Part shown: positions 8,966 through 47,896 of the stretch, one piece after another
How positions within the stretch are numbered: the first letter of the stretch is position 1
Layout of the letters: every line of letters begins with the position of its first letter
DNA from: a virus
Lineage: Duplodnaviria > Heunggongvirae > Uroviricota > Caudoviricetes
Length of the DNA stretch: 64,000 bases
IMG/VR virus record: IMGVR_UViG_3300015214_000024
Coordinates: 169,787-233,786 of that record
Direction: 5' to 3' (one strand)
Notes under the pieces: generated by a model
Database searches by the model: none
Seen by the model: the letters and a program-made list of their open reading frames with translations, nothing else
What the model was told of the DNA's origin: nothing
Position numbers and translations under genes: made by a program

Positions 8966-8986
8966 ATGACACGAACTACTAGCTGA
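8966..8986 (+). promoter_or_regulatory. Thr-rich leader peptide MTRTTS upstream of thrS
   Basis: AAGGAG RBS; ATG ACA CGA ACT ACT AGC TGA; hairpin at 8985-9020. Confidence 0.75.
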
Positions 8987-10243: not shown

Positions 10244-10244
10244 T

Positions 10245-10445
10245 TGACACGGACTAAATAGTGTAGTAAGTTTAGAACATAAGTTGAAACAAATTTTAAG
10301 GAAAGCAGTTACCATTATGTCACATTCAGTTTATCATTATGAATATGAGCGTGAATATCTCCGTCCAGGGGAGAGTTGGTAACGAGTATTTAAAATACTT
10401 CGACTGAACCGATTCAACCCTGGGACTGAAATCCCAGGGTTTTTT
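10245..10445 (+). promoter_or_regulatory. Attenuator 1: promoter, leader 10317-10382 (MSHSVYHYEYEREYLRPGESW), antiterminator and terminator
   Basis: TTGACA promoter; H/Y/E-rich ORF; AACCCTGGGA/TCCCAGGGTT-TTTT terminator. Confidence 0.85.
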
Positions 10446-10454
10446 CGTTTTTGT

Positions 10455-10531
10455 GGTGGCATAACGCAAACAGGTGAGCGGACTGACTGTGAATCAGTTG
10501 TTAGAGGGTTCAAGTCCCTTGTGTCACACCA
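10455..10531 (+). tRNA. tRNA-His(GUG), A73 type
   Basis: Cloverleaf, loop CUGUGAA, CCA. Confidence 0.9.
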
Positions 10532-16763: not shown

Positions 16764-17385
16764 ATGCTACGTGGTACACGTTTGATTGAGGGCAAGGAAG
16801 CTCAAACATTTAATGAAGTAATTGATACCTTTCGGAGGTTAGTTCATCCAGTCTGATTTCGAAGAAATCATTGTTCCCAGTATTTGGGAACAAGAAACCT
16901 TTTTGGCCAAAACTGGCCCAGAACTATCTAAACAAATGTGGACCTTTAAGGATAAAGGTGATCGAGACGTTTGTTTGATTCCTGAAGTTACCGGTATTTT
17001 TCAAGAAACTTGGCGTGAAAAATGGTCCAAGTCAATGAAATTCCGTAAAGTGTTTTACGTACAACGCTGTTATAGGTATGAAAGGCCGCAAGCTGGCCGT
17101 TATCGTGAATTTACGCAATTGGGTATTGAAATCCTTGGTAACTATGATAATGGTGATCAAGAGGCTCAAGATTTGTTGAAAGCTGGTCTTGACGCAATTG
17201 GTGTAGAGTATGAATTTGATTCAACCGCGACACGTGGTCTCGGATACTACACTGAGCTTGGTTTTGAAGCTCGTTGCGAATCACTTGGTGCGCAAAAGCA
17301 AGTAGCAGGCGGCGGCCGTTATGCTGAAGGTGTTGGATGGGCTATTGGTGTTGACCGACTGGTTTTAGCTAAAATGAATAAATGA
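16764..17385 (+). CDS. hisS: Minimal histidyl-tRNA synthetase, split by a +1 frameshift at ~16845
   Basis: MLRGTR N-terminus in frame 0; +1 frame gives FEEIIVP, LIPEVT, RYERPQAGRYREFTQ, RGLGYYT, GGGRY, GWAIGVDRL. Confidence 0.85.
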
Positions 17386-21334: not shown

Positions 21335-21557
21335 TTGACTCCGGACTAAATACATTATATAAAGTATAAATAACTTTGTAGAAACTTTTATAGGAAAGTG
21401 AATTTAAAATGTTAAACCTAGTACTCAATCCAGTTAATTTGTTAGGACTCAATCCTAATCAATTGCCTGTGGGTGACTCGGGGACAGCATTTTAAAATCT
21501 AAATAAAAGATTTAAATGAAGGTTACCCCGGGAAACGCAAGTTTACCCGGGTTTTTT
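21335..21557 (+). promoter_or_regulatory. Attenuator 2: promoter, leader 21409-21495 (MLNLVLNPVNLLGLNPNQLPVGDSGTAF), antiterminator and terminator
   Basis: TTGACT and TATAAATA promoters; L/N/P-rich ORF; CCCGGGAAAC-GCAA-GTTTACCCGGG-T6 terminator. Confidence 0.87.
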
Positions 21558-21567
21558 ATTGCTTACA

Positions 21568-21689
21568 AGAGTTTAGTTTAGAGTGTGGTGAAATGGTAAA
21601 CACGGGCGGCTAATAACCGCCCCCCACAGAGGAAACGAGCATTTAAATGAACGTTGCTGGTTCGAGTCCAGCCACTCAAAACTAAACTT
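21568..21689 (+). ncRNA. tRNA-like RNA, AAU anticodon, extended acceptor stem
   Basis: GGCGG-CUAAUAA-CCGCC; ~16-bp terminal stem; no CCA. Confidence 0.6.
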
Positions 21690-21707
21690 TTTGATTTGGA
21701 TTGAACA

Positions 21708-22238
21708 ATGATTGATATTGAACAATATATTCGTTTACCGTTAAATGAGCGCCAAGCACATTTGAAATTGGAAGAAAATTGTATTGTTCGTGGCGGCCCT
21801 AAAGATGGTGGTTTATCATCGTATTGTAAGGGTTTGATGGCTCATATATTGGATACGACAATACCATCTGGTATGAAGATACATATTTGTCACGCTTGCC
21901 ATAATAAACATTGTTCAAATCCAAAACATTTATATTGGGGTACTGCTAAAGAAAATGCTATTGACAACTATAATAACGGTGCTAAAACAGCCCGTGAACG
22001 TACAATAGAAAAATATGGCATTGAAAAGGCAAATGAAATTTTTAAATTAAATTCAACCTTGGCAGCGGCTAAAGGAGGAAGAAAAGGAAAAGGAAAACCA
22101 AAAAGTGATCATCATCGGTTAGCTTTATCAAATGCTGGTAAAGGAACTGTATGGTTTAACAACGGTTTTAAAAATTTAAAAATTAAGATAGGTGGTCAAA
22201 TTCCGGAAGGGTTTGTTCAAGGAATGATTAAAAAATAA
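21708..22238 (+). CDS. HNH homing endonuclease
   Basis: ICHACHNKHCSNPKHLYWGT..EN. Confidence 0.85.
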   Translation: MIDIEQYIRLPLNERQAHLKLEENCIVRGGPKDGGLSSYCKGLMAHILDTTIPSGMKIHICHACHNKHCSNPKHLYWGTAKENAIDNYNNGAKTARERTIEKYGIEKANEIFKLNSTLAAAKGGRKGKGKPKSDHHRLALSNAGKGTVWFNNGFKNLKIKIGGQIPEGFVQGMIKK

Positions 22239-22243
22239 TATAT

Positions 22244-22325
22244 GGGGCTGTGGCTAATGCGAATGGTACAGCTAATAGTTTTAGAAACTATGCTTTTGAG
22301 AGTTCGAGTCTCTCCAGCCCTACCA
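22244..22325 (+). tRNA. tRNA-Leu(UAG), short V-arm
   Basis: AUAGU-UUUAGAA-ACUAU, CCA. Confidence 0.8.
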
Positions 22326-22439
22326 GTTTAATTACTGATGCTATTTGACATTGTTGATTGATTTATGTTACTGGTAGGACCTAAAAGATCCTATCAGTGC
22401 CAGGAAGGTAACGGGTAGTGCTGACTACTTCCTGGATTT

Positions 22440-22513
22440 GCTCCTGTAGCCCAAATGGAAGAGGCGGCAGTTTCAAACACTGTACAGTGTGAGTTCGAGT
22501 CTCACCAGGAGCA
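22440..22513 (+). tRNA. tRNA-Leu(CAA), short V-arm
   Basis: GCAGU-UUCAAAC-ACUGU. Confidence 0.85.
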
Positions 22514-22517
22514 CAAG

Positions 22518-22615
22518 ATGATGGTTTAGTCAGGGGTTAGCTCAATTGGTAGAGCACCTGGTCTGGAGCCAGGGGGTTGGGAGTTCAAGTCTCCTGCTCC
22601 TGACTAAACCATCAT
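22518..22615 (+). ncRNA. tRNA-Pro(UGG)-like RNA with ~13-bp acceptor extension
   Basis: Full cloverleaf flanked by AUGAUGGUUUAGU/ACUAAACCAUCAU. Confidence 0.7.
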
Positions 22616-22623
22616 ACTTAAAT

Positions 22624-22699
22624 GCGGTTGTGGGCAAAAGGTAAAGTCGGCAAACTTAAAATTTGTGTCATATTGTGGGTTCGAGTCCCACCTACCGCA
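22624..22699 (+). tRNA. tRNA-Leu(UAA), short V-arm
   Basis: GCAAA-CUUAAAA-UUUGU. Confidence 0.8.
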
Positions 22700-22952
22700 C
22701 AAAAAGATGAAAAAGGCGTTGACAACGTTTTAACATCAAGTTAATATGCGAAACAAGAAACGTACTTAACAGTAAGTTTTTCGTTTAGTGGTATTTCTTT
22801 AATAGCCCTAATAGGCTGGGATTACGGAACGCTATGTTGAAGGACATAACTCGGAAATCCCCGTGTGAGGCGGTCATCCAAAGTGGTAGTCGAATTATGG
22901 TTGGAAGAAACGGAATGTAAGGACCACCGAAATGGTGCAAGGCCATTATAAC

Positions 22953-23027
22953 CGGGGATTAGCTCAGCCGGGTCAGAGCGCCTGCTTTGGGAGCAGGAAG
23001 TCGTAGGTTCGAATCCTACATTCCCGA
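22953..23027 (+). tRNA. tRNA-Pro(UGG)
   Basis: Loop UUUGGGA. Confidence 0.9.
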
Positions 23028-23184
23028 CAATATTAAGCAATGCTGTCATTAAGTAGTAATATTTTTTGATAGGAAAGGCAGCCATTATGGCGGTAAGCTG
23101 GATATATCCATTAACTCAATCATTTGGGTGTGGAATAGCCCGAGCAGAAGTTGGGATCAGGTCCAACCGTTGTTTAATATTAAT

Positions 23185-23268
23185 GCCCTAGTGGTGAAAT
23201 TGGTAGACACACTAGATTTAGGTTCTAGCGCCAAAAGCGTGGGGGTTCGAGTCCCTCCTAGGGCACCA
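23185..23268 (+). tRNA. tRNA-Leu(UAG)
   Basis: Canonical, CCA. Confidence 0.95.
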
Positions 23269-23272
23269 AAAG

Positions 23273-23935
23273 ATGGAGACGAGAATGGAAATTCTTAAAT
23301 TGAAGAATCCTTATCTAAATGGATTTAGTGATGAAAACGATCCAGTTGCTCTGCAATATTTAGATAAGCTGAAAGCGATTAAGGAAGCATTATCATCAGG
23401 CCGCCTCTATTGCCAATATATAGATGGCGATAGAAAAGGATCAATTGCAAAATTGATCCCAGATCCTGCCTATTCTCATATTGAGGATCGCGCGCCATCT
23501 ATTCGATATTCAAGTTCGCACTTTCAAAAAGGTCCTTGGTATCGATTTGAGAATGATATGTTTTTTATGATTGCGACTTGGAATGGCCGCAAGAATAAAG
23601 TTAAAGAAACTTGGTCATATTATAGTCAATTTGAATTTATTATTGGCGATGATATAGAAACTGTATGGCAAAAGTTTGATGCACAAACGGCTAAAGAAGA
23701 AGTACTCAAGAACCCCAATCAAAAGGATATTGATGGTAATGTTCTCAATGTCGGTGATGCAGTAATGTTTGTTAATGCACGTTATGGCTCACGAATGGTA
23801 CTTGAACGTGGCAGAATTAAAGAATTTAAAGTAGTGGTTGATTCGAAGAAAACTTCTATTTCAACTGTTATTGAGAATAGCGAAGGTGCTTTAAGTACAT
23901 TATCATATCCAGAAGATATGGTTTGTAAAATTTAA
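23273..23935 (+). CDS. Hypothetical protein
   Basis: 220-aa ORF between tRNAs. Confidence 0.7.
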   Translation: METRMEILKLKNPYLNGFSDENDPVALQYLDKLKAIKEALSSGRLYCQYIDGDRKGSIAKLIPDPAYSHIEDRAPSIRYSSSHFQKGPWYRFENDMFFMIATWNGRKNKVKETWSYYSQFEFIIGDDIETVWQKFDAQTAKEEVLKNPNQKDIDGNVLNVGDAVMFVNARYGSRMVLERGRIKEFKVVVDSKKTSISTVIENSEGALSTLSYPEDMVCKI

Positions 23936-23938
23936 AAT

Positions 23939-24024
23939 GCGGTTATGGTGGAATGGCAGACACACTATCTTGAGGGGGTAGCGAGAGAAATCTCATAAGG
24001 GTTCAAGTCCCTTTAACCGCACCA
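23939..24024 (+). tRNA. tRNA-Leu(GAG)
   Basis: Loop UUGAGGG, CCA. Confidence 0.9.
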
Positions 24025-24255
24025 AAAAGAACGTTGCGAGTAGCTATCGCATAGTTAGGCTGATATCCTGATGAAGAATCCAGTTAGCCCTGGAAAAACT
24101 ATCCCTGACTTGGAAAGCTGGTTGACATAACATATAATGTCACGTATTGGGATTTATACGATAAATTGAGCCGTGGAGGTGAGCGTTGATCTAGCTGATC
24201 TAAAGTAGGCTAGGGAGTGATCGGACCCGTGAAGCGGACAATTAAATCCCAACAT

Positions 24256-24332
24256 CTGGAAGTAGCGCAGCCTGGTAGCGTACCTCATTTGGAGTGAGGG
24301 GGTCGGAGGTTCAAATCCTCTCTTCCAGACCA
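24256..24332 (+). tRNA. tRNA-Pro(UGG)
   Basis: Loop UUUGGAG, CCA. Confidence 0.9.
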
Positions 24333-24340
24333 ATTATTGT

Positions 24341-24455
24341 GCGGATGTAGCTTAATGGGTTGGTCGAGCTAGATAAGACCAAACTTAGTGGCCACTAAGT
24401 AAAGCGGCAGGTAGTTAACCTGGAGAAGGTGGTTCGATTCCATCCATCCGAGCCA
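24341..24455 (+). ncRNA. tRNA-Asn(GUU)-like RNA with two hairpins in the D-loop
   Basis: D-stem GCUU/AAGC encloses two hairpins; GCCA end. Confidence 0.6.
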
Positions 24456-24590
24456 AAAAGAAATTGAACATATTTTGTTTGTGTGGGTAAAAGCATTGAC
24501 AACGTTAGTATTGCCTCTATAATCTAGACGTTGTGTGGGTTCAAGTCCCTGAGGAGGCTTCAGCTTTTTAACAGCAAATATGTCAATCAT

Positions 24591-24667
24591 TCCCCTGGGG
24601 TCCTATCGGTAGGGACGCCTGACTGTTAATCAGGTTGCTGTAGGTTCGAATCCTACCAGGGGAGCCA
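24591..24667 (+). tRNA. tRNA-Asn(GUU)
   Basis: Loop CUGUUAA, GCCA. Confidence 0.9.
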
Positions 24668-24896
24668 ATTAGAAATTCAAACTAATGATTAATTAGGAAA
24701 CTTGCCAATGGGTCGACACAGACGCAAGGATAATTTTTAAAAATTAGGGAGATAGGAGAAGTCCTGGGCGGGCGCCAACCTTTATGGCTAGCCGGCGCGA
24801 ATATAGGGTTCAATTCCTTATAGTGGAAAACAAAGTCGTGTTTTTCATCCTTGGGCAGGGTAGGTTCAATTCCTCGCTTCTCTGAACGCAACATAT

Positions 24897-24973
24897 TCCC
24901 AATGGGCCCTATTGGCAGGGGCACGACGCTGTTAACGTCGACGCTGTAGGTTCGAATCCTACATTGGGAGCCA
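24897..24973 (+). tRNA. tRNA-Asn(GUU)
   Basis: Loop CUGUUAA, GCCA. Confidence 0.9.
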
Positions 24974-24987
24974 ATTTGAGGTATGAT

Positions 24988-25410
24988 ATGAATTACAAAG
25001 GACATAAAGATAAAATTTATATTTGTGAAAATTGTTTTTCTGAAATAGCCTTCAAAGGCTATTCAAACAAGCACCGATTTTGTGATATGAAATGTGCTGG
25101 TGAATTTAAAGTTAAGGAAACTAAAGATAAAAATTTAAAATTATTCCTTCAAGGTAAATTAACGCGCAGGGATAGAATTTATGAAATATTAGTTGAACGC
25201 GATGGTAATTGCTGTTCTGTTTGTAAAATTACCGAATGGAATGGTAAAGAAATTCGTTTATGGGTTGACCATATTGACGGAAATGCTACCAATAATTCAC
25301 CGAATAATTTTAGACTGATTTGTCCAAATTGTGATTCACAAAGTGAAACTTTTGGAGCCAAGAATCGAGGCAATGGAAGAAAATCAAAAGGATTACCGCA
25401 ATATGGGTAA
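24988..25410 (+). CDS. HNH endonuclease
   Basis: CSVC..VDHIDGN..NN...N.RLICPNC. Confidence 0.88.
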   Translation: MNYKGHKDKIYICENCFSEIAFKGYSNKHRFCDMKCAGEFKVKETKDKNLKLFLQGKLTRRDRIYEILVERDGNCCSVCKITEWNGKEIRLWVDHIDGNATNNSPNNFRLICPNCDSQSETFGAKNRGNGRKSKGLPQYG

Positions 25411-25413
25411 TAT

Positions 25414-25488
25414 TCCGGAGTAACTCAATGGTAGAGTAACTGGCTGTTAACCAGTAAGTTGGGGGTTCGAGTCCCTCCTCCGGAGCCA
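25414..25488 (+). tRNA. tRNA-Asn(GUU)
   Basis: Canonical. Confidence 0.93.
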
Positions 25489-25610
25489 TTAAAGTTTAGG
25501 CAAAAAGAGAAGGCGGTTAAATTCCGTCTAGGCGAGAGATCAAGGGCCCATTTATGGAGGTCTTGGCGAGAGAATATAGCATAATGTTAATGTGCTTTTT
25601 GTCTTACCAT

Positions 25611-25882
25611 TTTGGTATAGTGTAAAGGAAAAGTTCAGTAAGTTGCTGAAAAGTTTCTAATAAGCTTATCGGAGAATAGTGAAAGTATTAACAGTAGCAA
25701 ACGCAAAGGCTATAAAAACCGTGAGCTTGGGAAGGGCAAGACAGGCTGTTAATATGGAAACTGGGATTTGATAAGTGGATGATTAACTTAGTAAGTAGGT
25801 GAAAGGCTTAGTACGTGGTAGCACGCCGGCATAGCACTTGCGTTTTGGAGCCGGAAGTGAGGTTCGAGCCCTCTTACCAGAG
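25611..25882 (+). ncRNA. tRNA-Gln(UUG)-like RNA with ~190-nt D-loop insertion and 12-nt anticodon-loop insertion
   Basis: UUUGGUA/UACCAGA acceptor, GUGU/GCAC D-stem, CCGGC/GCCGG stem, T-arm. Confidence 0.6.
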
Positions 25883-25892
25883 CTAATAGAAA

Positions 25893-26071
25893 TTATCCAT
25901 CGTCTAAACGTGGTACTAACGATAGGGAGTGATCACCTGACAATAGGTCGATTGAAAATTAGTATTGAAATCTACCAATCACGTGTAAGGTAGAAAGTAA
26001 AGAAATGTTTCTTTCAGTTAGGACGCCGCCCGTGGAGGGCGGAAATATCAGCACACTGATTGGATAAACCA
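25893..26071 (+). ncRNA. tRNA-like RNA with ~110-nt D-loop insertion and reduced T-loop
   Basis: UUAUCCA/UGGAUAA-ACCA; GUCU/GGAC D-stem; CCGCC-CGUGGAG-GGCGG. Confidence 0.55.
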
Positions 26072-26185
26072 ATGTGTAGCTTAATTGTTGAGGATTTATT
26101 TTCAACAATTAGTTCGTAAGAATGTTCACCGTATGGTGTAGGACGTTCGGGATATAATTGCGGGGAGGGGCATTATATCATTCAT

Positions 26186-26261
26186 CTAGATGTGGGAAAG
26201 TTGGTAATCCGCCTGTTTCGGGAACAGGAGACCGCCGGTTCGAGCCCGGCCCTCTAGACCA
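26186..26261 (+). tRNA. tRNA-Pro(CGG)
   Basis: Loop UUCGGGA, CCA. Confidence 0.9.
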
Positions 26262-26325
26262 ATTCTTGACATAGCATTGAACTAATGCTATTAGATTTCT
26301 ATTAACAATTTAGCTCAGAAAGGAT

Positions 26326-27591
26326 ATGGCGATGTATGATCAGTATGTATGCGTAATGTTCCCGTATCCTAGTGGCGCTGGCCTGCATTTGGGTCATTAT
26401 TACAACTATGCTGTAATTGACTCATATGCTAGGTGGCAGCGTTTTAAAGGTCAGACGGTTTTTCAACCTTTTGGTTATGATGCTTTTGGCTTGCCTGCAG
26501 AAAACTATGCTCGCCAAATTGGCGGTGATCCTAGAACAATAACTAATCAAAATATTCAAAATTTCCGTAAACAAATGCGAAATATGAATACTTTGTATGA
26601 CGAACAGTTGGTTACTTGTGAAACTGATTACGTTAAGTGGACCCAATGGATCTTTAATGCTTTGAAAGATCGTGGATTAGCATACAAAGCTTGGGGTGAA
26701 GTAAATTGGTGTGAACAGTGCGGGACCGTGTTGGCTAATGAACAAGCGCAAAATGGCATTTGTGAACGCCACGGAACTCCTGTTGAAAAACGTCAAATGA
26801 ATCAGTGGTATTTCAAGATTACTGATTATACTGATCGATTGATTAAGAATTTGGACTGGATTGATTATCCGGAAGGGACTAAGAAGCAACAGCGCAAATG
26901 GTTGGAGGATCAGCAAGATTGGTGTGTCAGTCGTCAGCGTTCTTGGGGCTGTCCTATACCAATTGAAGGTGAAACTGACACCTTGGACACTTTTGTTGAC
27001 TCTTCATTTTATTTCTTGCGCTATTTGACTAAAAGTGAAGATGAGTTTTTGCCAGCTGATCAATACAAGCAAGTCGATCTGTATGTTGGTGGCCCAGAAC
27101 ACGCTTGTATGCATTTGATATATGCTCGTTTTATTCATATGGTTTTGTTTGATATGGGAATTGTTCCTGAAGAAGAGCCATTTAAGAAAGTTATTCATCA
27201 GGGTATGATTACCAAGGATGGGAACAAGATGAGCAAAAGTAAAGGTAATGCCGTTAGTCCTGATGACTATGATCCTGACGAATTGAGAATGTATTTGATG
27301 TTCTTGGGGCCATATTTTGAAGGTGGGGATTGGAGTGACCAGCATATTGTTGGTGTTCGCCGCTTCTTCAATAGGATGAAAACTTGGTTGGGAGAAGCTG
27401 GCACTGAAAATATTGACACTTCTCAGTTGGAAAATCAAATTGATCATTATGTTTCTACTTTCAAATTTAATAAAGTAGTTTCAAGTTTTATGGAATTTAT
27501 GAACAAAAATAAATCCAAAAAAGTTGATAATGAAACTCGAAATAAAATTGTCAGAATGTTGACTAATTTTGCCCCAGGGTTTCGAATTTAA
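26326..27591 (+). CDS. leuS: Minimal leucyl-tRNA synthetase (no CP1 editing or C-terminal domain)
   Basis: MFPYPSG.GLHLGH, DAFGLPAEN, DWCVSRQR.WG, DTFVDSS, KMSKSKGN; only 421 aa. Confidence 0.93.
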   Translation: MAMYDQYVCVMFPYPSGAGLHLGHYYNYAVIDSYARWQRFKGQTVFQPFGYDAFGLPAENYARQIGGDPRTITNQNIQNFRKQMRNMNTLYDEQLVTCETDYVKWTQWIFNALKDRGLAYKAWGEVNWCEQCGTVLANEQAQNGICERHGTPVEKRQMNQWYFKITDYTDRLIKNLDWIDYPEGTKKQQRKWLEDQQDWCVSRQRSWGCPIPIEGETDTLDTFVDSSFYFLRYLTKSEDEFLPADQYKQVDLYVGGPEHACMHLIYARFIHMVLFDMGIVPEEEPFKKVIHQGMITKDGNKMSKSKGNAVSPDDYDPDELRMYLMFLGPYFEGGDWSDQHIVGVRRFFNRMKTWLGEAGTENIDTSQLENQIDHYVSTFKFNKVVSSFMEFMNKNKSKKVDNETRNKIVRMLTNFAPGFRI

Positions 27592-27770
27592 GTAGTTGAC
27601 AGTGAATAGATTGTTTGCTACTATGAATACATAAGCAGTTAAGCAGTTTTGGTCCACGGTGGTTCCAGCAAATGTTGGAGGGTAGATGGTTCGAATCCAT
27701 TTAAGAAAACCTGGGTTAGGTTTAAACCAAAAGAGCGTTCAAATCGCTCCGCCAAAAACCGTTTAATTAT

Positions 27771-28724
27771 TATGCCCACTTGGCGGAATTTGAATATGAT
27801 AAACCTTGAAAATATTGTTGAATCTCTCAAAAGGCAATATCCTGAATATGATTATGAGATATTGAATAATAAGATTGGAATCTGGGATCCTCCTGGAAAC
27901 CATTATAAAGGAAGATACCATATACAAATTGCAGAATGTGAAATAACTGAAGACAAAAATTATGATCATAATTTTTGGATAGATTTTTTAGAAAAATGTA
28001 TCTTTATTCATAGAATGAATAAGTATAATTTTTAATTAAAATTTGCGTCAACTATAAATAAAGCTAAAAGGTAACTTTATGCTTTGTGATTATGGTTGCG
28101 AACAGGAATCAAATTTTGTTCTTAAAAATGGTAAAAATTGTTGCGCAAAGAGTCAAAATTCATGTCCTGCAATAAGGGCTAAGACTGGGGCAACTGTTAA
28201 GCATCAATTTAAATCTGGCAGTAGAAAACGTCAACCATATGTTTATGCTGATTTGCCTGATGAAACAAAAGAGAGAATGAAATGGAACAAAGGAAAAGAA
28301 ATTGTTCCAAACGAAATTGTGTTTGCTGAAAATAGCAAATATGATAATGATGTGGTTAAAAAAAGAATTTTACAAAACAATCTTTTAGATTATAAATGTG
28401 CCGAATGTGAGTTGACAGAATGGCAAGGCAAAAGTATAGTGTTGGAGTTAGAACACTGCAACGGCGTTCGAAACGATCATAGGATTGAAAACTTAAAGTT
28501 TTTGTGTCCAAATTGCCACTCACAAACGGAAACGTTTAGAGGAAGAAACAAAAACACTGGAAAAGTTATTGTTACTGATGAAGAGTTGTTGACAGCGTTA
28601 AAGTCGACTGCTAATATAAGACAAGCTTTACAGAGTGTAGGACTTGCTGCTAAAGGCGGAAATTATGCTCGAGTTAAAGCTTTAAAATTAAAGTTTAATG
28701 TTTAATATGCCCACTTGGCGGAAT
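27771..28724 (+). mobile_element. HNH-carrying insertion bounded by a 19-bp direct repeat of the tRNA-Leu 5' end
   Basis: TATGCCCACTTGGCGGAAT at 27771 and 28706. Confidence 0.65.
28079..28705 (+). CDS. HNH endonuclease
   Basis: CAEC..LELEHCNG..D.R.ENL.FLCPNCH. Confidence 0.88.
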   Translation: MLCDYGCEQESNFVLKNGKNCCAKSQNSCPAIRAKTGATVKHQFKSGSRKRQPYVYADLPDETKERMKWNKGKEIVPNEIVFAENSKYDNDVVKKRILQNNLLDYKCAECELTEWQGKSIVLELEHCNGVRNDHRIENLKFLCPNCHSQTETFRGRNKNTGKVIVTDEELLTALKSTANIRQALQSVGLAAKGGNYARVKALKLKFNV

Positions 28725-28864
28725 GGTAGACGCCAGGGACTTGTCGGAAAGAAACCTTAGGGTTTAGAACGCCACTTAGTATGGCGACGGTGCGAATCCG
28801 GAATCCGAAAGCTAAAATCCCTTGCCCTTTGGGCGTACCGGTTCGAGTCCGGTAGTGGGTACCA
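28709..28864 (+). tRNA. tRNA-Leu(UAA) with a 71-nt structured insert in the anticodon
   Basis: AGGGA-CUU^AAAA-UCCCU restored if 28743-28813 is removed. Confidence 0.8.
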
Positions 28865-29495
28865 AATGAGAAGTCGTATGGTTGGTTTCATACTACTTGA
28901 ATGATATAAATTGGGTTAACACAGTTTATATCAAACAAGCTGTCCCTGATAAGCCATATGTGGGAAGATAAGCTGCCCATTTGACTATGTAGCTTGAGTT
29001 ATTGTAAACGGAGATATAGTAATGACTGCTGCTACTTTTGCTGGACTACTTGTTATTATGTATGTCCTTTTTGTAATTGGTAAAGTTCTTGAAAACTACT
29101 TGCCTCAGAAGCAGCCAAGTTATGTTAGTGGCGCTGGCGCACCGGAACCTTCAGCAGAGGCTAAGGAAGCTGCCCGTCGTTATAGAGAGCAGAACCTAAA
29201 TCCGTTTTATTGATATGAAAAATCAAGAACCAACGGATGAACAAATAAATGATTACTTGGTTGGTAATCCGCATGAAAGTTGGTTTACAGCCAGAGAGAA
29301 ATTAAGAGATAAAGCTTATTCAGAAGATCACAAGAAACCGGAAGGTATGACTTGGGGTGAATATTGGAAAAGCTTTTAAAAGTTCGCACTGCCCGATATG
29401 AGTAACACTGAAAAGTGAAAAACTCGGAATTACTTAGCCCAAACACTTTGGGATGCAAAGACGGTAAGGAAAAAGGAAGTGACGGTGCGAAACTT

Positions 29496-29582
29496 GCGGG
29501 TATGGCGGAATTGGTAGACGCGACTGACTCAAAATCAGTTTCCCGAAAGGGAGTGGGGGTTCGAGTCCCTCTACCCGCACCA
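29496..29582 (+). tRNA. tRNA-Leu(CAA)
   Basis: Canonical, CCA. Confidence 0.95.
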
Positions 29583-29762
29583 AACTGGAAGGATTTAAAT
29601 CTTAGCAGTTTGACCTATTTGAATGCTATGTTAGATTAAACTGGCCTAAAGCTGCCAATCCTAACGGATCGTGGCATAGCAAACAAGTGGGACTGCTAAA
29701 CGTACTAAGCGGGATTGGAACATGTGCGTGACTTTGCTAAGTTTCAGAGTAAATTTAGCTAT

Positions 29763-29800
29763 TCTTCAGTGGTGGAACTGGTAAACACATTAGACTAAAT
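29763..29800 (+). pseudogene. tRNA-Leu 5' half
   Basis: GUGGUGGAACUGGUAAACAC D-arm, truncated just before an endonuclease ORF. Confidence 0.5.
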
Positions 29801-29805
29801 ACATT

Positions 29806-30384
29806 ATGAAGAATAATTGGAAAGAAATTCAGGAATATTACGACAAAGGTTTTAGTATTCGAGAATTGGTTGCACATTTTAAAATTTCGACTAAGTCAAT
29901 ACATCTCGCTAAAAAGCGTGGCGAGTTTGTGACCAGATCAAAATCAGAGAGTGCTTTATTAGTAAAGAAAAAATTTGGCCAGAAGGTATTGTCAAAATCC
30001 CATAAAGATAATATATCTAATGGTATGAGGGCGGCCCATAAAAATGGTAATGCTTGGAATATTGGCCAAAGTAGATGGAATAATGAACCAAGTTGGCCAG
30101 AACAATTTTTTATGAATGTGGTCGCAAATGAATTTGACGACAAGAATTATGAATATGAAAAACCATTTCATAAATTTAGTTTAGATTTTGTTTGGGAGCA
30201 TAAAAAGAAAGTAATAGAAATTGATGGTGAACAGCACGATCGCTGCTTTGAGCAACGTAGACGTGATGAGGAAAAAGATTCGTTACTCCATCAATATGGA
30301 TATGAAATTTTACGTATCAGGTGGAAAGATATGTTTAATGATCCAAAAGTTTATATTAAACTTGCAAAAGATTTTATAAACTAA
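29806..30384 (+). CDS. DUF559/Vsr-like endonuclease
   Basis: LDF..VIEIDGEQH..D..D..L...GY.ILR. Confidence 0.82.
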   Translation: MKNNWKEIQEYYDKGFSIRELVAHFKISTKSIHLAKKRGEFVTRSKSESALLVKKKFGQKVLSKSHKDNISNGMRAAHKNGNAWNIGQSRWNNEPSWPEQFFMNVVANEFDDKNYEYEKPFHKFSLDFVWEHKKKVIEIDGEQHDRCFEQRRRDEEKDSLLHQYGYEILRIRWKDMFNDPKVYIKLAKDFIN

Positions 30385-30387
30385 TAT

Positions 30388-30459
30388 TCCGATGTAGCTC
30401 AGCGGTAGAGTCGGTGACTGTTAATCACTTTGTCGGAGGTTCGAATCCTTCCATCGGAG
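30388..30459 (+). tRNA. tRNA-Asn(GUU)
   Basis: Canonical. Confidence 0.92.
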
Positions 30460-30930
30460 CAAAAAGGAAAATGGTATGACTTGGATGATTTATCCAGATA
30501 ATATTCCAACAGAATCAGGTTATTATATGACTTTATATTATAATCCTGAACGTAATGAAGAGCTTTACAAAGCTCTTTGGTTTAGTGTTGATATTGGTAA
30601 ATGGACTGGACCTTGGCCTTGGAATTATGAATATGGGAAAGAATTTACGACCACTGATGGTCATAAAGCTCGTCCTATAATTTGGAAGGGTATTGATGTA
30701 AAGAAATATCAACCATTATCAAAAGCTCGATAATATACCCAATGTGTGTATATTGAAGGATAAAAGAAAAGATATCGGCACCTAGTTGGTCGCCGGCGTA
30801 CTATGTGAGCACAAAACCAAATAGGTATCAGATATTTGGCACAAAAGCGTCACACATAAGCGGTTTGGGAGGAGGTCCGCGGTCTTTTCAATTTTTCCAT
30901 AAATATCTAAAAGATTTGTGGAGATCAAAA

Positions 30931-31380
30931 ATGAAATTATTTGAAATAGATCAAATGAAACTTGCTGCTAAAATGCAAGCCATTATTGATGATCCGAACA
31001 CTAATGAAAATGTTAGAGCAGTAGCTAAATCAAAACTTCAACAGCTTATTGATAGTAAAGCTGGCCAAAACGTAACTTATGCTTATACTGATTTTGGTGC
31101 TACTCAAAAGATTAAAGATTACAATAAGGTTTTTATGGTAATTGATCGAACCGTAATAACTTTTAGAGATATGGTTGATTCCATTAGAAAAGTTAATACA
31201 ACTTTTGTTGATTTTGACAATGGGACAACTGATAGTAAATCACCATCAATTATACTTAAAGTCAAAGACGATGGCAATGATGTGAGTGATATAATAAAAA
31301 ATTCTATTAAATCATCTAAATTTACAGTGTCAACAGTTGACAAAATAGATGATAATATGTATAAAGCATATATACAGTGA
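30931..31380 (+). CDS. Hypothetical protein (MKLFEI start)
   Basis: GGAG RBS; TAAATA upstream. Confidence 0.65.
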   Translation: MKLFEIDQMKLAAKMQAIIDDPNTNENVRAVAKSKLQQLIDSKAGQNVTYAYTDFGATQKIKDYNKVFMVIDRTVITFRDMVDSIRKVNTTFVDFDNGTTDSKSPSIILKVKDDGNDVSDIIKNSIKSSKFTVSTVDKIDDNMYKAYIQ

Positions 31381-31464
31381 ATAGAAAATGTGGATTGAAC
31401 AATTTATTGCGTCCGTTTTAAAGTTAAGTGAACTTGAAGCGAAGATCATTTCTTATCCATAAAT

Positions 31465-31541
31465 CGGGGATTGGCCTAGTCTGGTAAGGCGCTTGCTTTG
31501 GGTGCAAGAGATCGCGAGTTCGAATCCCGCATCCCCGACCA
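31465..31541 (+). tRNA. tRNA-Pro(UGG)
   Basis: Loop UUUGGGU, CCA. Confidence 0.9.
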
Positions 31542-39859: not shown

Positions 39860-40105
39860 TTGACACGGAATAAATAGTTTTGTAAAGTATAAATACATTA
39901 GCGCAGGAAGCGCATTTTAAAAGGAATAGGGAACTTCAAATGTTTACGAAATTTGGACAATTTAAGGGACAGAAAGCTGTTGCGACAGTCGCAGCGGATC
40001 GTATGACCTTTGATTGGGCCATTACGGAGGGTGTTCGAGAATAAAGTTTAAGAAAAAACTTAATTCGAAGGGCACCCGGGAAAAGGAAACTTTCCCGGGT
40101 TTTTT
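39860..40105 (+). promoter_or_regulatory. Attenuator 3: promoter, leader 39940-40044 (MFTKFGQFKGQKAVATVAADRMTFDWAITEGVRE), antiterminator and terminator
   Basis: TTGACA and TATAAATA promoters; ACCCGGGAAA/TTTCCCGGGT-T5 terminator. Confidence 0.87.
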
Positions 40106-40116
40106 ATTACTTAAAT

Positions 40117-40191
40117 GGACGATTAGCTCAGCGGTAGAGCGGCACCTCGACACGGTGAAGGCCACTGGTTCAATCCCAGTATCGTCCACCA
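40117..40191 (+). tRNA. tRNA-Val(GAC)
   Basis: Loop UCGACAC, CCA. Confidence 0.88.
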
Positions 40192-47341: not shown

Positions 47342-47896
47342 TTATGAAAGGATCGTTATGAACATTTATAAAATGTTGGATGAGTTCCCGTATGGGATTG
47401 TGGTCCTTGAGGGGGATTATGTTAAGCATATTTGTCTTTATCCTTCAATGCCCACACAAGCTGATGCTGAAGGATTGTACGATGAACTTCAAAAAGATCC
47501 GGAGCACGGAATGATTGGTGAAGATTTATCCAAGATGAATTTTTGTCCAGCCTCTGGCGAATTATTAAAAGAAGCTATAAGGGCATTTTCAAGTGAAAGC
47601 TATGAATAATAAGGATTTTGTAGAATATACCACTGATCCAGATTTATGGCCAGATCTTGTTGAGATCAGTGATATTTTAGTACGCTTCCCATTTTATATG
47701 AAATGTGATCAGTTCTCAGATGCGGTGTTATTGGCTGAACAATTTGACCGATATTTTGAAGACCAAGATTTGTTTATGGTGTGCAGACAATATGATAATT
47801 TTGTTTTCTTTGAGTCAGAAGAAGCAAGGGCTATTGCGGCAATAATTAAATAAAAGTAGTTGACAGACTATAAATAACATAGTAGATTATACAAAT

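Follow-up and report, generated by a model that had tools for sequence, protein, structure and literature searches.

Why phages carry tRNA genes has remained open for more than 50 years (PMC10264068). The locus described here raises this question in a specific form: are the tRNA genes for Leu, Asn and Pro of a large phage switched on by a ribosome that runs short of these very tRNAs? The locus belongs to a virus record of 455,147 bases with a G+C content of 39%, in which 69 tRNAs were called and the major capsid gene is T4-like; Sinorhizobium phage Phosso is the nearest cultured capsid relative (75% identity). Positions refer to the window, i.e. the whole stretch of 64,000 nucleotides analysed, unless stated otherwise. 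The tRNAs of this phage are grouped by amino acid, with His/Tyr/Glu from 10456, Leu/Asn/Pro at 21579-31541, twelve further amino acids starting at 40117, and a Ser block far outside the window. Neither biosynthetic family nor use of queuosine explains this grouping; both were tried and rejected, as they fail to fit Leu/Asn/Pro, His/Tyr/Glu and other splits elsewhere. We consider it likely that the cassette ahead of the Leu/Asn/Pro block, here named A2, is a ribosome-mediated transcription attenuator with tRNA genes as its output. This view rests on a modelled switch without any experiment, and translation of the leader, termination and the physiological trigger are inferred. The elements concerned are the following.

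21335..21363, plus strand: sigma-70-type promoter candidate, recognised by sequence only (-35 TTGACT, 17 nt, -10 TATAAA)
21365..21372, plus strand: TATAAATA, overlapping the start region, which, by knowledge of T4, we take to be a late-promoter-like box (identity untested)
21392..21398, plus strand: Shine-Dalgarno-like AGGAAAG, a motif that also precedes the leaders of the sister cassettes A1 and A4
21409..21495, plus strand: leader ORF of 28 codons, ATG to TAA
21412..21468, plus strand: sensing tract, codons 2-20, with Leu, Asn or Pro at 15 of its 19 positions; also provides region 1 for a 1:2 protector hairpin
21477..21485, plus strand: region 2, the antiterminator strand (codons 23-26), defined by pairing; shifted in register yet retained in relatives
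21487..21519, plus strand: A/U-rich inner hairpin over the stop codon that juxtaposes regions 2 and 3, defined by folding
21522..21560, plus strand: region 3:4 intrinsic terminator with stem 21527-21551, GNRA loop and U tail 21552-21560
21579..31541, plus strand: putatively regulated block with tRNAs for Leu (UAA, UAG, GAG, CAA), Asn (GUU) and Pro (UGG, CGG); it also includes a short LeuRS gene, HNH-type ORFs and tRNA-like RNAs that carry insertions

The leader encodes 7 Leu, 5 Asn and 3 Pro residues, i.e. 15 of 27 compared to 4.8 expected (p=1.2e-5). None of the 98,651 windows of 19 residues in the phage proteome contains 15 such residues, and a share as high as that of the leader was found in only 2 of 3,072 short ATG-started ORFs. 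Its Leu codons are TTA (twice), CTA, CTC (twice) and TTG (twice), CTG and CTT being absent. The peptide belongs to no Pfam or NCBIfam family, and no viral or metagenome contig searched gave an exact DNA match to leader, terminator or promoter. The promoter candidate contains a spacer motif that is common to the other three cassettes of this genome; a search for TTGAC..TAAATA returned 7 sites in 455 kb, 4 of which are the cassettes. The terminator (-15.9 kcal/mol, 6 U) is followed by the first tRNA-like gene after 19 nt, and its 5' arm is the partner strand of the antiterminator. The minimum-energy antiterminator (-21.5 kcal/mol) has as its core the pairing of CUCGGGG (21477-21483) with CCCCGGG (21526-21532), and it surpasses shuffled sequences with p=0.003-0.005. 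A2 thus combines a short ORF and ribosome-binding site between a promoter candidate and tRNA genes with enrichment of control codons, a terminator before the first gene and a mutually exclusive antiterminator. The geometry of an attenuator, in which a stall frees region 2, a ribosome at the stop codon covers region 2 and an untranslated leader forms the 1:2 protector, is also met, though in models only.

When the genome was scanned without bias for strong terminators preceded by a short ORF, four cassettes emerged that are located directly before tRNA blocks and have a promoter motif in common. Besides A2 these are the following.

10244..10450, plus strand: sister cassette A1 with a His/Tyr/Glu leader at 10317-10382, upstream of the His/Tyr/Glu tRNA block that begins at 10456
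39860..40110, plus strand: sister cassette A3, leader 39940-40044 with twelve amino acids, before the twelve-amino-acid tRNA block (Val/Phe/Ile/Asp/Arg/Ala/Lys/Gln/Met/Trp/Gly/Thr)
genome position 300358, outside the window, minus strand: fourth cassette A4 (Ser), leader before the Ser block

Each leader is enriched for the amino acids of its own block only (A1 10/20, A2 15/27, A3 31/33, Ser 7/14; each p of about 1-3e-5). No leader-terminator precedes the Cys, Arg (257314) and amber-anticodon tRNAs or accompanies the promoter at 47860. An Ile-rich leader suggested earlier did not come up with a filter for ATG starts and Shine-Dalgarno sequences. When further cassettes were traced in other large phages via the short LeuRS, 21 more were found in four genomes, including LR745206, and their leaders are mostly unrelated. 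Across the 25 cassettes of five genomes, none of 200,000 permutations of leaders over blocks matched as well as the observed arrangement, and for 19 of the 25 leaders the own block was the best match. Three cassettes that were found later and held out match too (p values of 9e-4, 5e-4 and 4e-5), one of them with an Arg/Leu leader ahead of Arg/Leu tRNAs near leuS. It should be noted that leader starts and block borders were chosen by eye, and that the 25 cassettes are not fully independent, some leaders being homologous between two genomes. The 3' end of a leader also pairs far better with its own terminator arm than with those of others, within genomes as well (0 of 100,000 permutations as good). 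In this genome, the antiterminator reaches p≤0.025 against shuffles in all four cassettes, whereas none of the 37 other terminators reaches 0.04. The distance from stop codon to hairpin is 19-33 nt in 23 of the 25 cassettes. The anatomy of A2, the match in composition, the specific complementarity, the geometry and the recurrence are therewith shown. In some tRNA-rich phages no cassette was seen, for example in a 452-kb phage with 42 tRNAs, where none was present in the regions examined.

Two other arrangements were observed in further phages. In L004 (9867-9968) a leader with six Leu codons at its end and a terminator lie immediately before leuS. In L001 (22808-22919) a Gln-rich leader and a terminator are found inside a tRNA block, where they follow a tRNA immediately and no promoter is evident; this could be a serial attenuator, a possibility inferred from sequence alone.

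The switch itself was modelled by masking the RNA under the ribosome codon by codon and computing the terminator probability. For A2 the predicted probability is 0.97-0.98 without a ribosome, when the 1:2 protector forms. It falls to 0.25-0.5 when the ribosome occupies codons 4-16 and is 0.93-0.97 from codon 21 onwards. Cutting the transcript at the end of the stem gave a smaller modelled drop in termination. In a nascent-chain model, i.e. before the 3' arm of the terminator emerges, the antiterminator is fully occupied with the ribosome at positions through codon 20, which is the last Pro codon, and is lost at codon 21. Over 24 cassettes treated with nascent-chain models, cognate codons account for 179 of 238 (75%) in the ten-codon stretch before the switch point and for 64 of 224 (29%) after it, and the excess before the switch point holds in every one of the 24. 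A clear switch at equilibrium was obtained only for A1-A3, one other cassette and Phosso. Most of the relatives' cassettes show no switch at equilibrium and do so only in the nascent-chain model, which is a weaker result. Kinetic attenuators are expected to switch in nascent-chain rather than equilibrium folding. A sequence-only reading of this locus had proposed a Leu/Asn/Pro-sensing attenuator before the matching tRNA block. This core claim held in every computational test, and so did the leader ORF, the residue counts, the Leu codons and the CUCGGGG/CCCCGGG pairing on which it was built.

The proposed mechanism would operate as follows. RNA polymerase is inferred to start near 21370 and a ribosome to load on the leader. 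With an ample supply of charged tRNAs for Leu, Asn and Pro, the ribosome would pass codon 21 and mask region 2, upon which the terminator would fold and transcription would end at about 21558. If Leu, Asn or Pro tRNA is short, the ribosome would stall on codons 2-20, leaving region 2 to pair with the 5' arm of the terminator and allowing read-through into the Leu/Asn/Pro tRNA genes. A leader that is not translated would form the 1:2 protector and terminate by default. As the products of the block would relieve the stall, the circuit would constitute a negative-feedback loop. With respect to the trigger, we infer that cleavage or decay of host tRNAs, or high demand (late) in infection, is to be preferred over plain amino-acid starvation, because extra tRNA would help little against starvation.

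Natural variation in relatives bears on the same RNA elements. Contigs of three separate studies contain the same A2 cassette with shared substitutions. In the terminator the change is confined to the loop (GCAA to GAAA), and the change at 21503 is located in the loop of the inner hairpin. Five shared substitutions in region 2 alter three residues of the leader peptide (V21M, S24G, T26S), and in this variant a nine-pair antiterminator is rebuilt one base over (-20.8 compared to -21.5 kcal/mol). The variant ranks 11 of 243 five-base combinations for low termination in the stalled state, the median being 0.94. The pairing of the RNA has therefore been retained while the tail of the leader peptide drifts. 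The variant was, however, reconstructed from an incomplete list of differences, and further changes may exist. The HD-protein and ORF 23273 relatives are too distant for alignment-based covariation. In a relative with a 92%-identical LeuRS, the Leu/Asn/Pro block is kept and an Asp/Asn-type synthetase gene has been added inside it. A straw metatranscriptome includes a contig of 375 nt with 3 differences that extends from 21385 across the terminator and reaches the tRNA, as well as a second contig that begins near the A3 promoter. These contigs were not counted as evidence: RNA ends are not shown, the material is possibly DNA, and both come from one study.

How far the attenuator governs the block as a whole is less clear. 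The LeuRS gene is located as follows.

26326..27591, plus strand: short leucyl-tRNA synthetase of 421 aa, best family leuS_bact (E 2.5e-118), under the full-length cut-off

The distance from A2 to this gene is 4.8 kb. The block contains internal sigma-70-like promoter candidates at 22719, 24496, 26266 and 27596; several of these precede leuS, that at 26266 directly. Since promoter candidates precede leuS, the attenuator may merely add to leuS expression rather than govern it, and parts of the block may be driven independently of the attenuator. Control of leuS by A2, which had been part of the earlier proposal, is therefore unproven. The promoter candidate of leuS (26266-26296) holds an inverted repeat, TAGCATT/AATGCTA, of which the arms are retained in the phage L069 with the 5-nt loop inverted. 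The short LeuRS family has at least 1,182 members at E≤1e-100. Three tRNAs with Leu anticodons (22244, 22440 and 22624) have short variable arms and could conceivably be substrates of the short LeuRS; that at 22244 was called Ile by ARAGORN, but its loop reads UAG.

Several unusual RNAs and genes were observed in the block and around it. The first gene 3' of the terminator (21579-21680) has a Leu-type body with a long variable arm and an AAU anticodon loop, lacks CCA and has an acceptor stem lengthened by about 12 pairs, with a comparable extension at 22531. Whether it could be a decoy or mis-decoding tRNA we raise only as a question. Further tRNA-like RNAs are found at 24341-24456 (Asn loop, insert in the D-arm), 25611-25886 (Gln/Pro-ambiguous, in a region 94% identical in L069), 25893-26072 (Pro UGG loop and an insert) and 28708-28863 (Leu UAA, 71-nt insert in the anticodon loop). 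Structured non-coding stretches between tRNAs (22780-23180, 24028-24255 and 24735-24890) have no Rfam match. Two tRNAs with CUA (amber) anticodons lie outside the window at genome positions 15281 and 165512. A six-codon mini-ORF with three Thr codons and a Shine-Dalgarno sequence (8966-8986), followed by a hairpin, directly precedes a short thrS. Lastly, hisS is divided over two frames (16764-17385) with an internal GGAGG immediately before a His codon, a possible candidate for a His-sensing frameshift as far as can be inferred from sequence alone.

Among the alternatives, the one that survives best is a refinement of the attenuator in which every Leu codon probes a single species of host tRNA, with the block providing precisely the species probed. 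The sequence-only reading had noted that the Leu codons correspond one-to-one to the Leu anticodons UAA, UAG, GAG and CAA, with CTG and a CAG tRNA both absent. This held for the A2 leader (p=0.023 for the exact four-codon match alone), and no Leu-CAG tRNA was called across the whole 455-kb genome. As a general design the rule failed: over the four leaders Watson-Crick-cognate codons are not in excess (34 of 63, compared to 35.4 expected), and the coverage of isoacceptors is borderline (32 of 35 compared to 29.1 expected, p=0.07). In addition, tRNA-Pro CGG is present although the CCG codon is missing, 4 of the 5 Asn codons are read by wobble, and relatives have TTT in place of one of the two TTA codons. 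A claimed match of the single Gln codon to the RNA at 25611 was not established; this element has a Gln-like acceptor, but its loop reads Gln (UUG) or Pro (UGG) and it carries large insertions, while the three ordinary Gln tRNAs belong to another block. Isoacceptor tuning consequently remains no more than a possibility.

We regard as unlikely that the leader is a timer or general gauge of translation speed, which would report host translation shut-off or lost transcription-translation coupling instead of particular tRNAs. In its favour, the model gives read-through for any slow ribosome on codons 2-20, and the Phosso leader has 18 amino-acid types, which is not above chance (p=0.14). Such a gauge would, however, need no match with the tRNAs, yet the four leaders divide the amino acids as the blocks do. 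Even less credible is a terminator that is leaky but constitutive and does no more than insulate the block or fix its basal read-through, with the tRNAs transcribed from internal promoters and the ORF incidental or a relic. It is supported by the prevalence of the terminator at equilibrium in most cassettes, by the internal promoter candidates and by the absence of a cassette from the examined regions of the 452-kb phage with its 42 tRNAs. It leaves unexplained the block-specific composition, the specific antiterminators, the coincidence of the switch point with the tract's end and the retention of the switch in relatives. That the leader peptide itself functions as a small inhibitor or arrest peptide, as the good Shine-Dalgarno sequence and an apparently conserved N-terminal tract in relatives might suggest, is also very improbable, because the leaders resemble each other only in matching the composition of their own blocks and not in sequence, V21M, S24G and T26S alter the tail while RNA pairing is retained, and no family match exists.

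The attenuator reading that we prefer has several implications. Where a leader lists the amino acids carried by the tRNAs behind it, synthesis on demand in response to slow decoding is implied. This favours replenishment over constitutive codon compensation, and a reporter can test both directly. The attenuator would also explain the amino-acid-sorted layout of phage tRNA arrays, and the leaders would provide an independent read-out of the amino acids intended for odd phage tRNAs. In screens for anticodon-nuclease defences they could serve as compact sensors that register tRNA depletion for several amino acids at once. A bolder reading, for and against which we judge the case to be equally strong at present, is that large phages of several host groups carry one ribosome-based sensor per amino-acid-sorted tRNA block, each detecting destroyed or exhausted host tRNAs and switching on just those replacements. 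The sensors would then form an inducible counter-defence against immunity that targets tRNAs, and co-evolution of the leaders with the content of their blocks would account for the sorted arrays. Phosso (PV764938.1) offers an entry point. Its annotated hypothetical gene 599 (419754-419918) looks like a pan-amino-acid leader of the same layout, as inferred from its sequence. The cassette (419754-419970, corresponding to L062:36343-36561) has its stop codon 27 nt before the terminator, an antiterminator with p=0.002, a modelled switch and a mixed tRNA array behind it; a second promoter candidate lies between the terminator and the first tRNA. Because a cultured phage carries a cassette of such layout, the design is testable.

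In comparison with known systems, A2 resembles the enterobacterial leaders trpL, hisL, leuL and pheL and the multivalent leaders of ilvGMEDA (Leu/Ile/Val) and thrL (Thr/Ile) (e.g. PMC4046918; PMC3082878 for hisL and pheL). These share a short translated leader with control codons, a 1:2 protector, a 2:3 antiterminator, a U-tailed 3:4 terminator and the logic by which a stall leads to read-through. Unlike these leaders, A2 has phage tRNA genes and a synthetase as output and no amino-acid biosynthetic operon, and the amino-acid sets in the phage are arbitrary, being set by the tRNA block and not by a pathway. No sequence or covariance-model match to the named leaders (leuL, ilvL, thrL, hisL, trpL, pheL; Pfam/NCBIfam/Rfam) was found at E≤5-10. 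The pheST attenuator of E. coli, with its pheM leader, provides leader-peptide feedback on the level of charged tRNA. It likewise attenuates a translation component, but its output is a synthetase, it concerns one amino acid and it is chromosomal. T-boxes (RF00230), some of which precede tRNA genes in Firmicutes, also govern a terminator/antiterminator switch by tRNA status. The RF00230 model, which detects its controls, found no T-box (Stem I specifier loop, antiterminator bulge) in this genome. A T-box binds the uncharged tRNA directly, so that the tRNA must be present, whereas the sensor of A2 would be the ribosome, and loss of a tRNA would therefore be sensed too. The full-text literature searched (subscription journals excluded) yielded no description of this kind of control acting on tRNA genes or occurring in phages, and with A2 the attenuation known from textbooks for enzymes would reach tRNA genes and viruses as well. 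The purpose proposed for phage tRNAs is to replenish those that anticodon nucleases or decay have removed (van den Berg et al. 2023, PMC10264068). That study is silent on regulation, promoters and attenuation, and to the replenishment it proposes the present finding adds a sensor.
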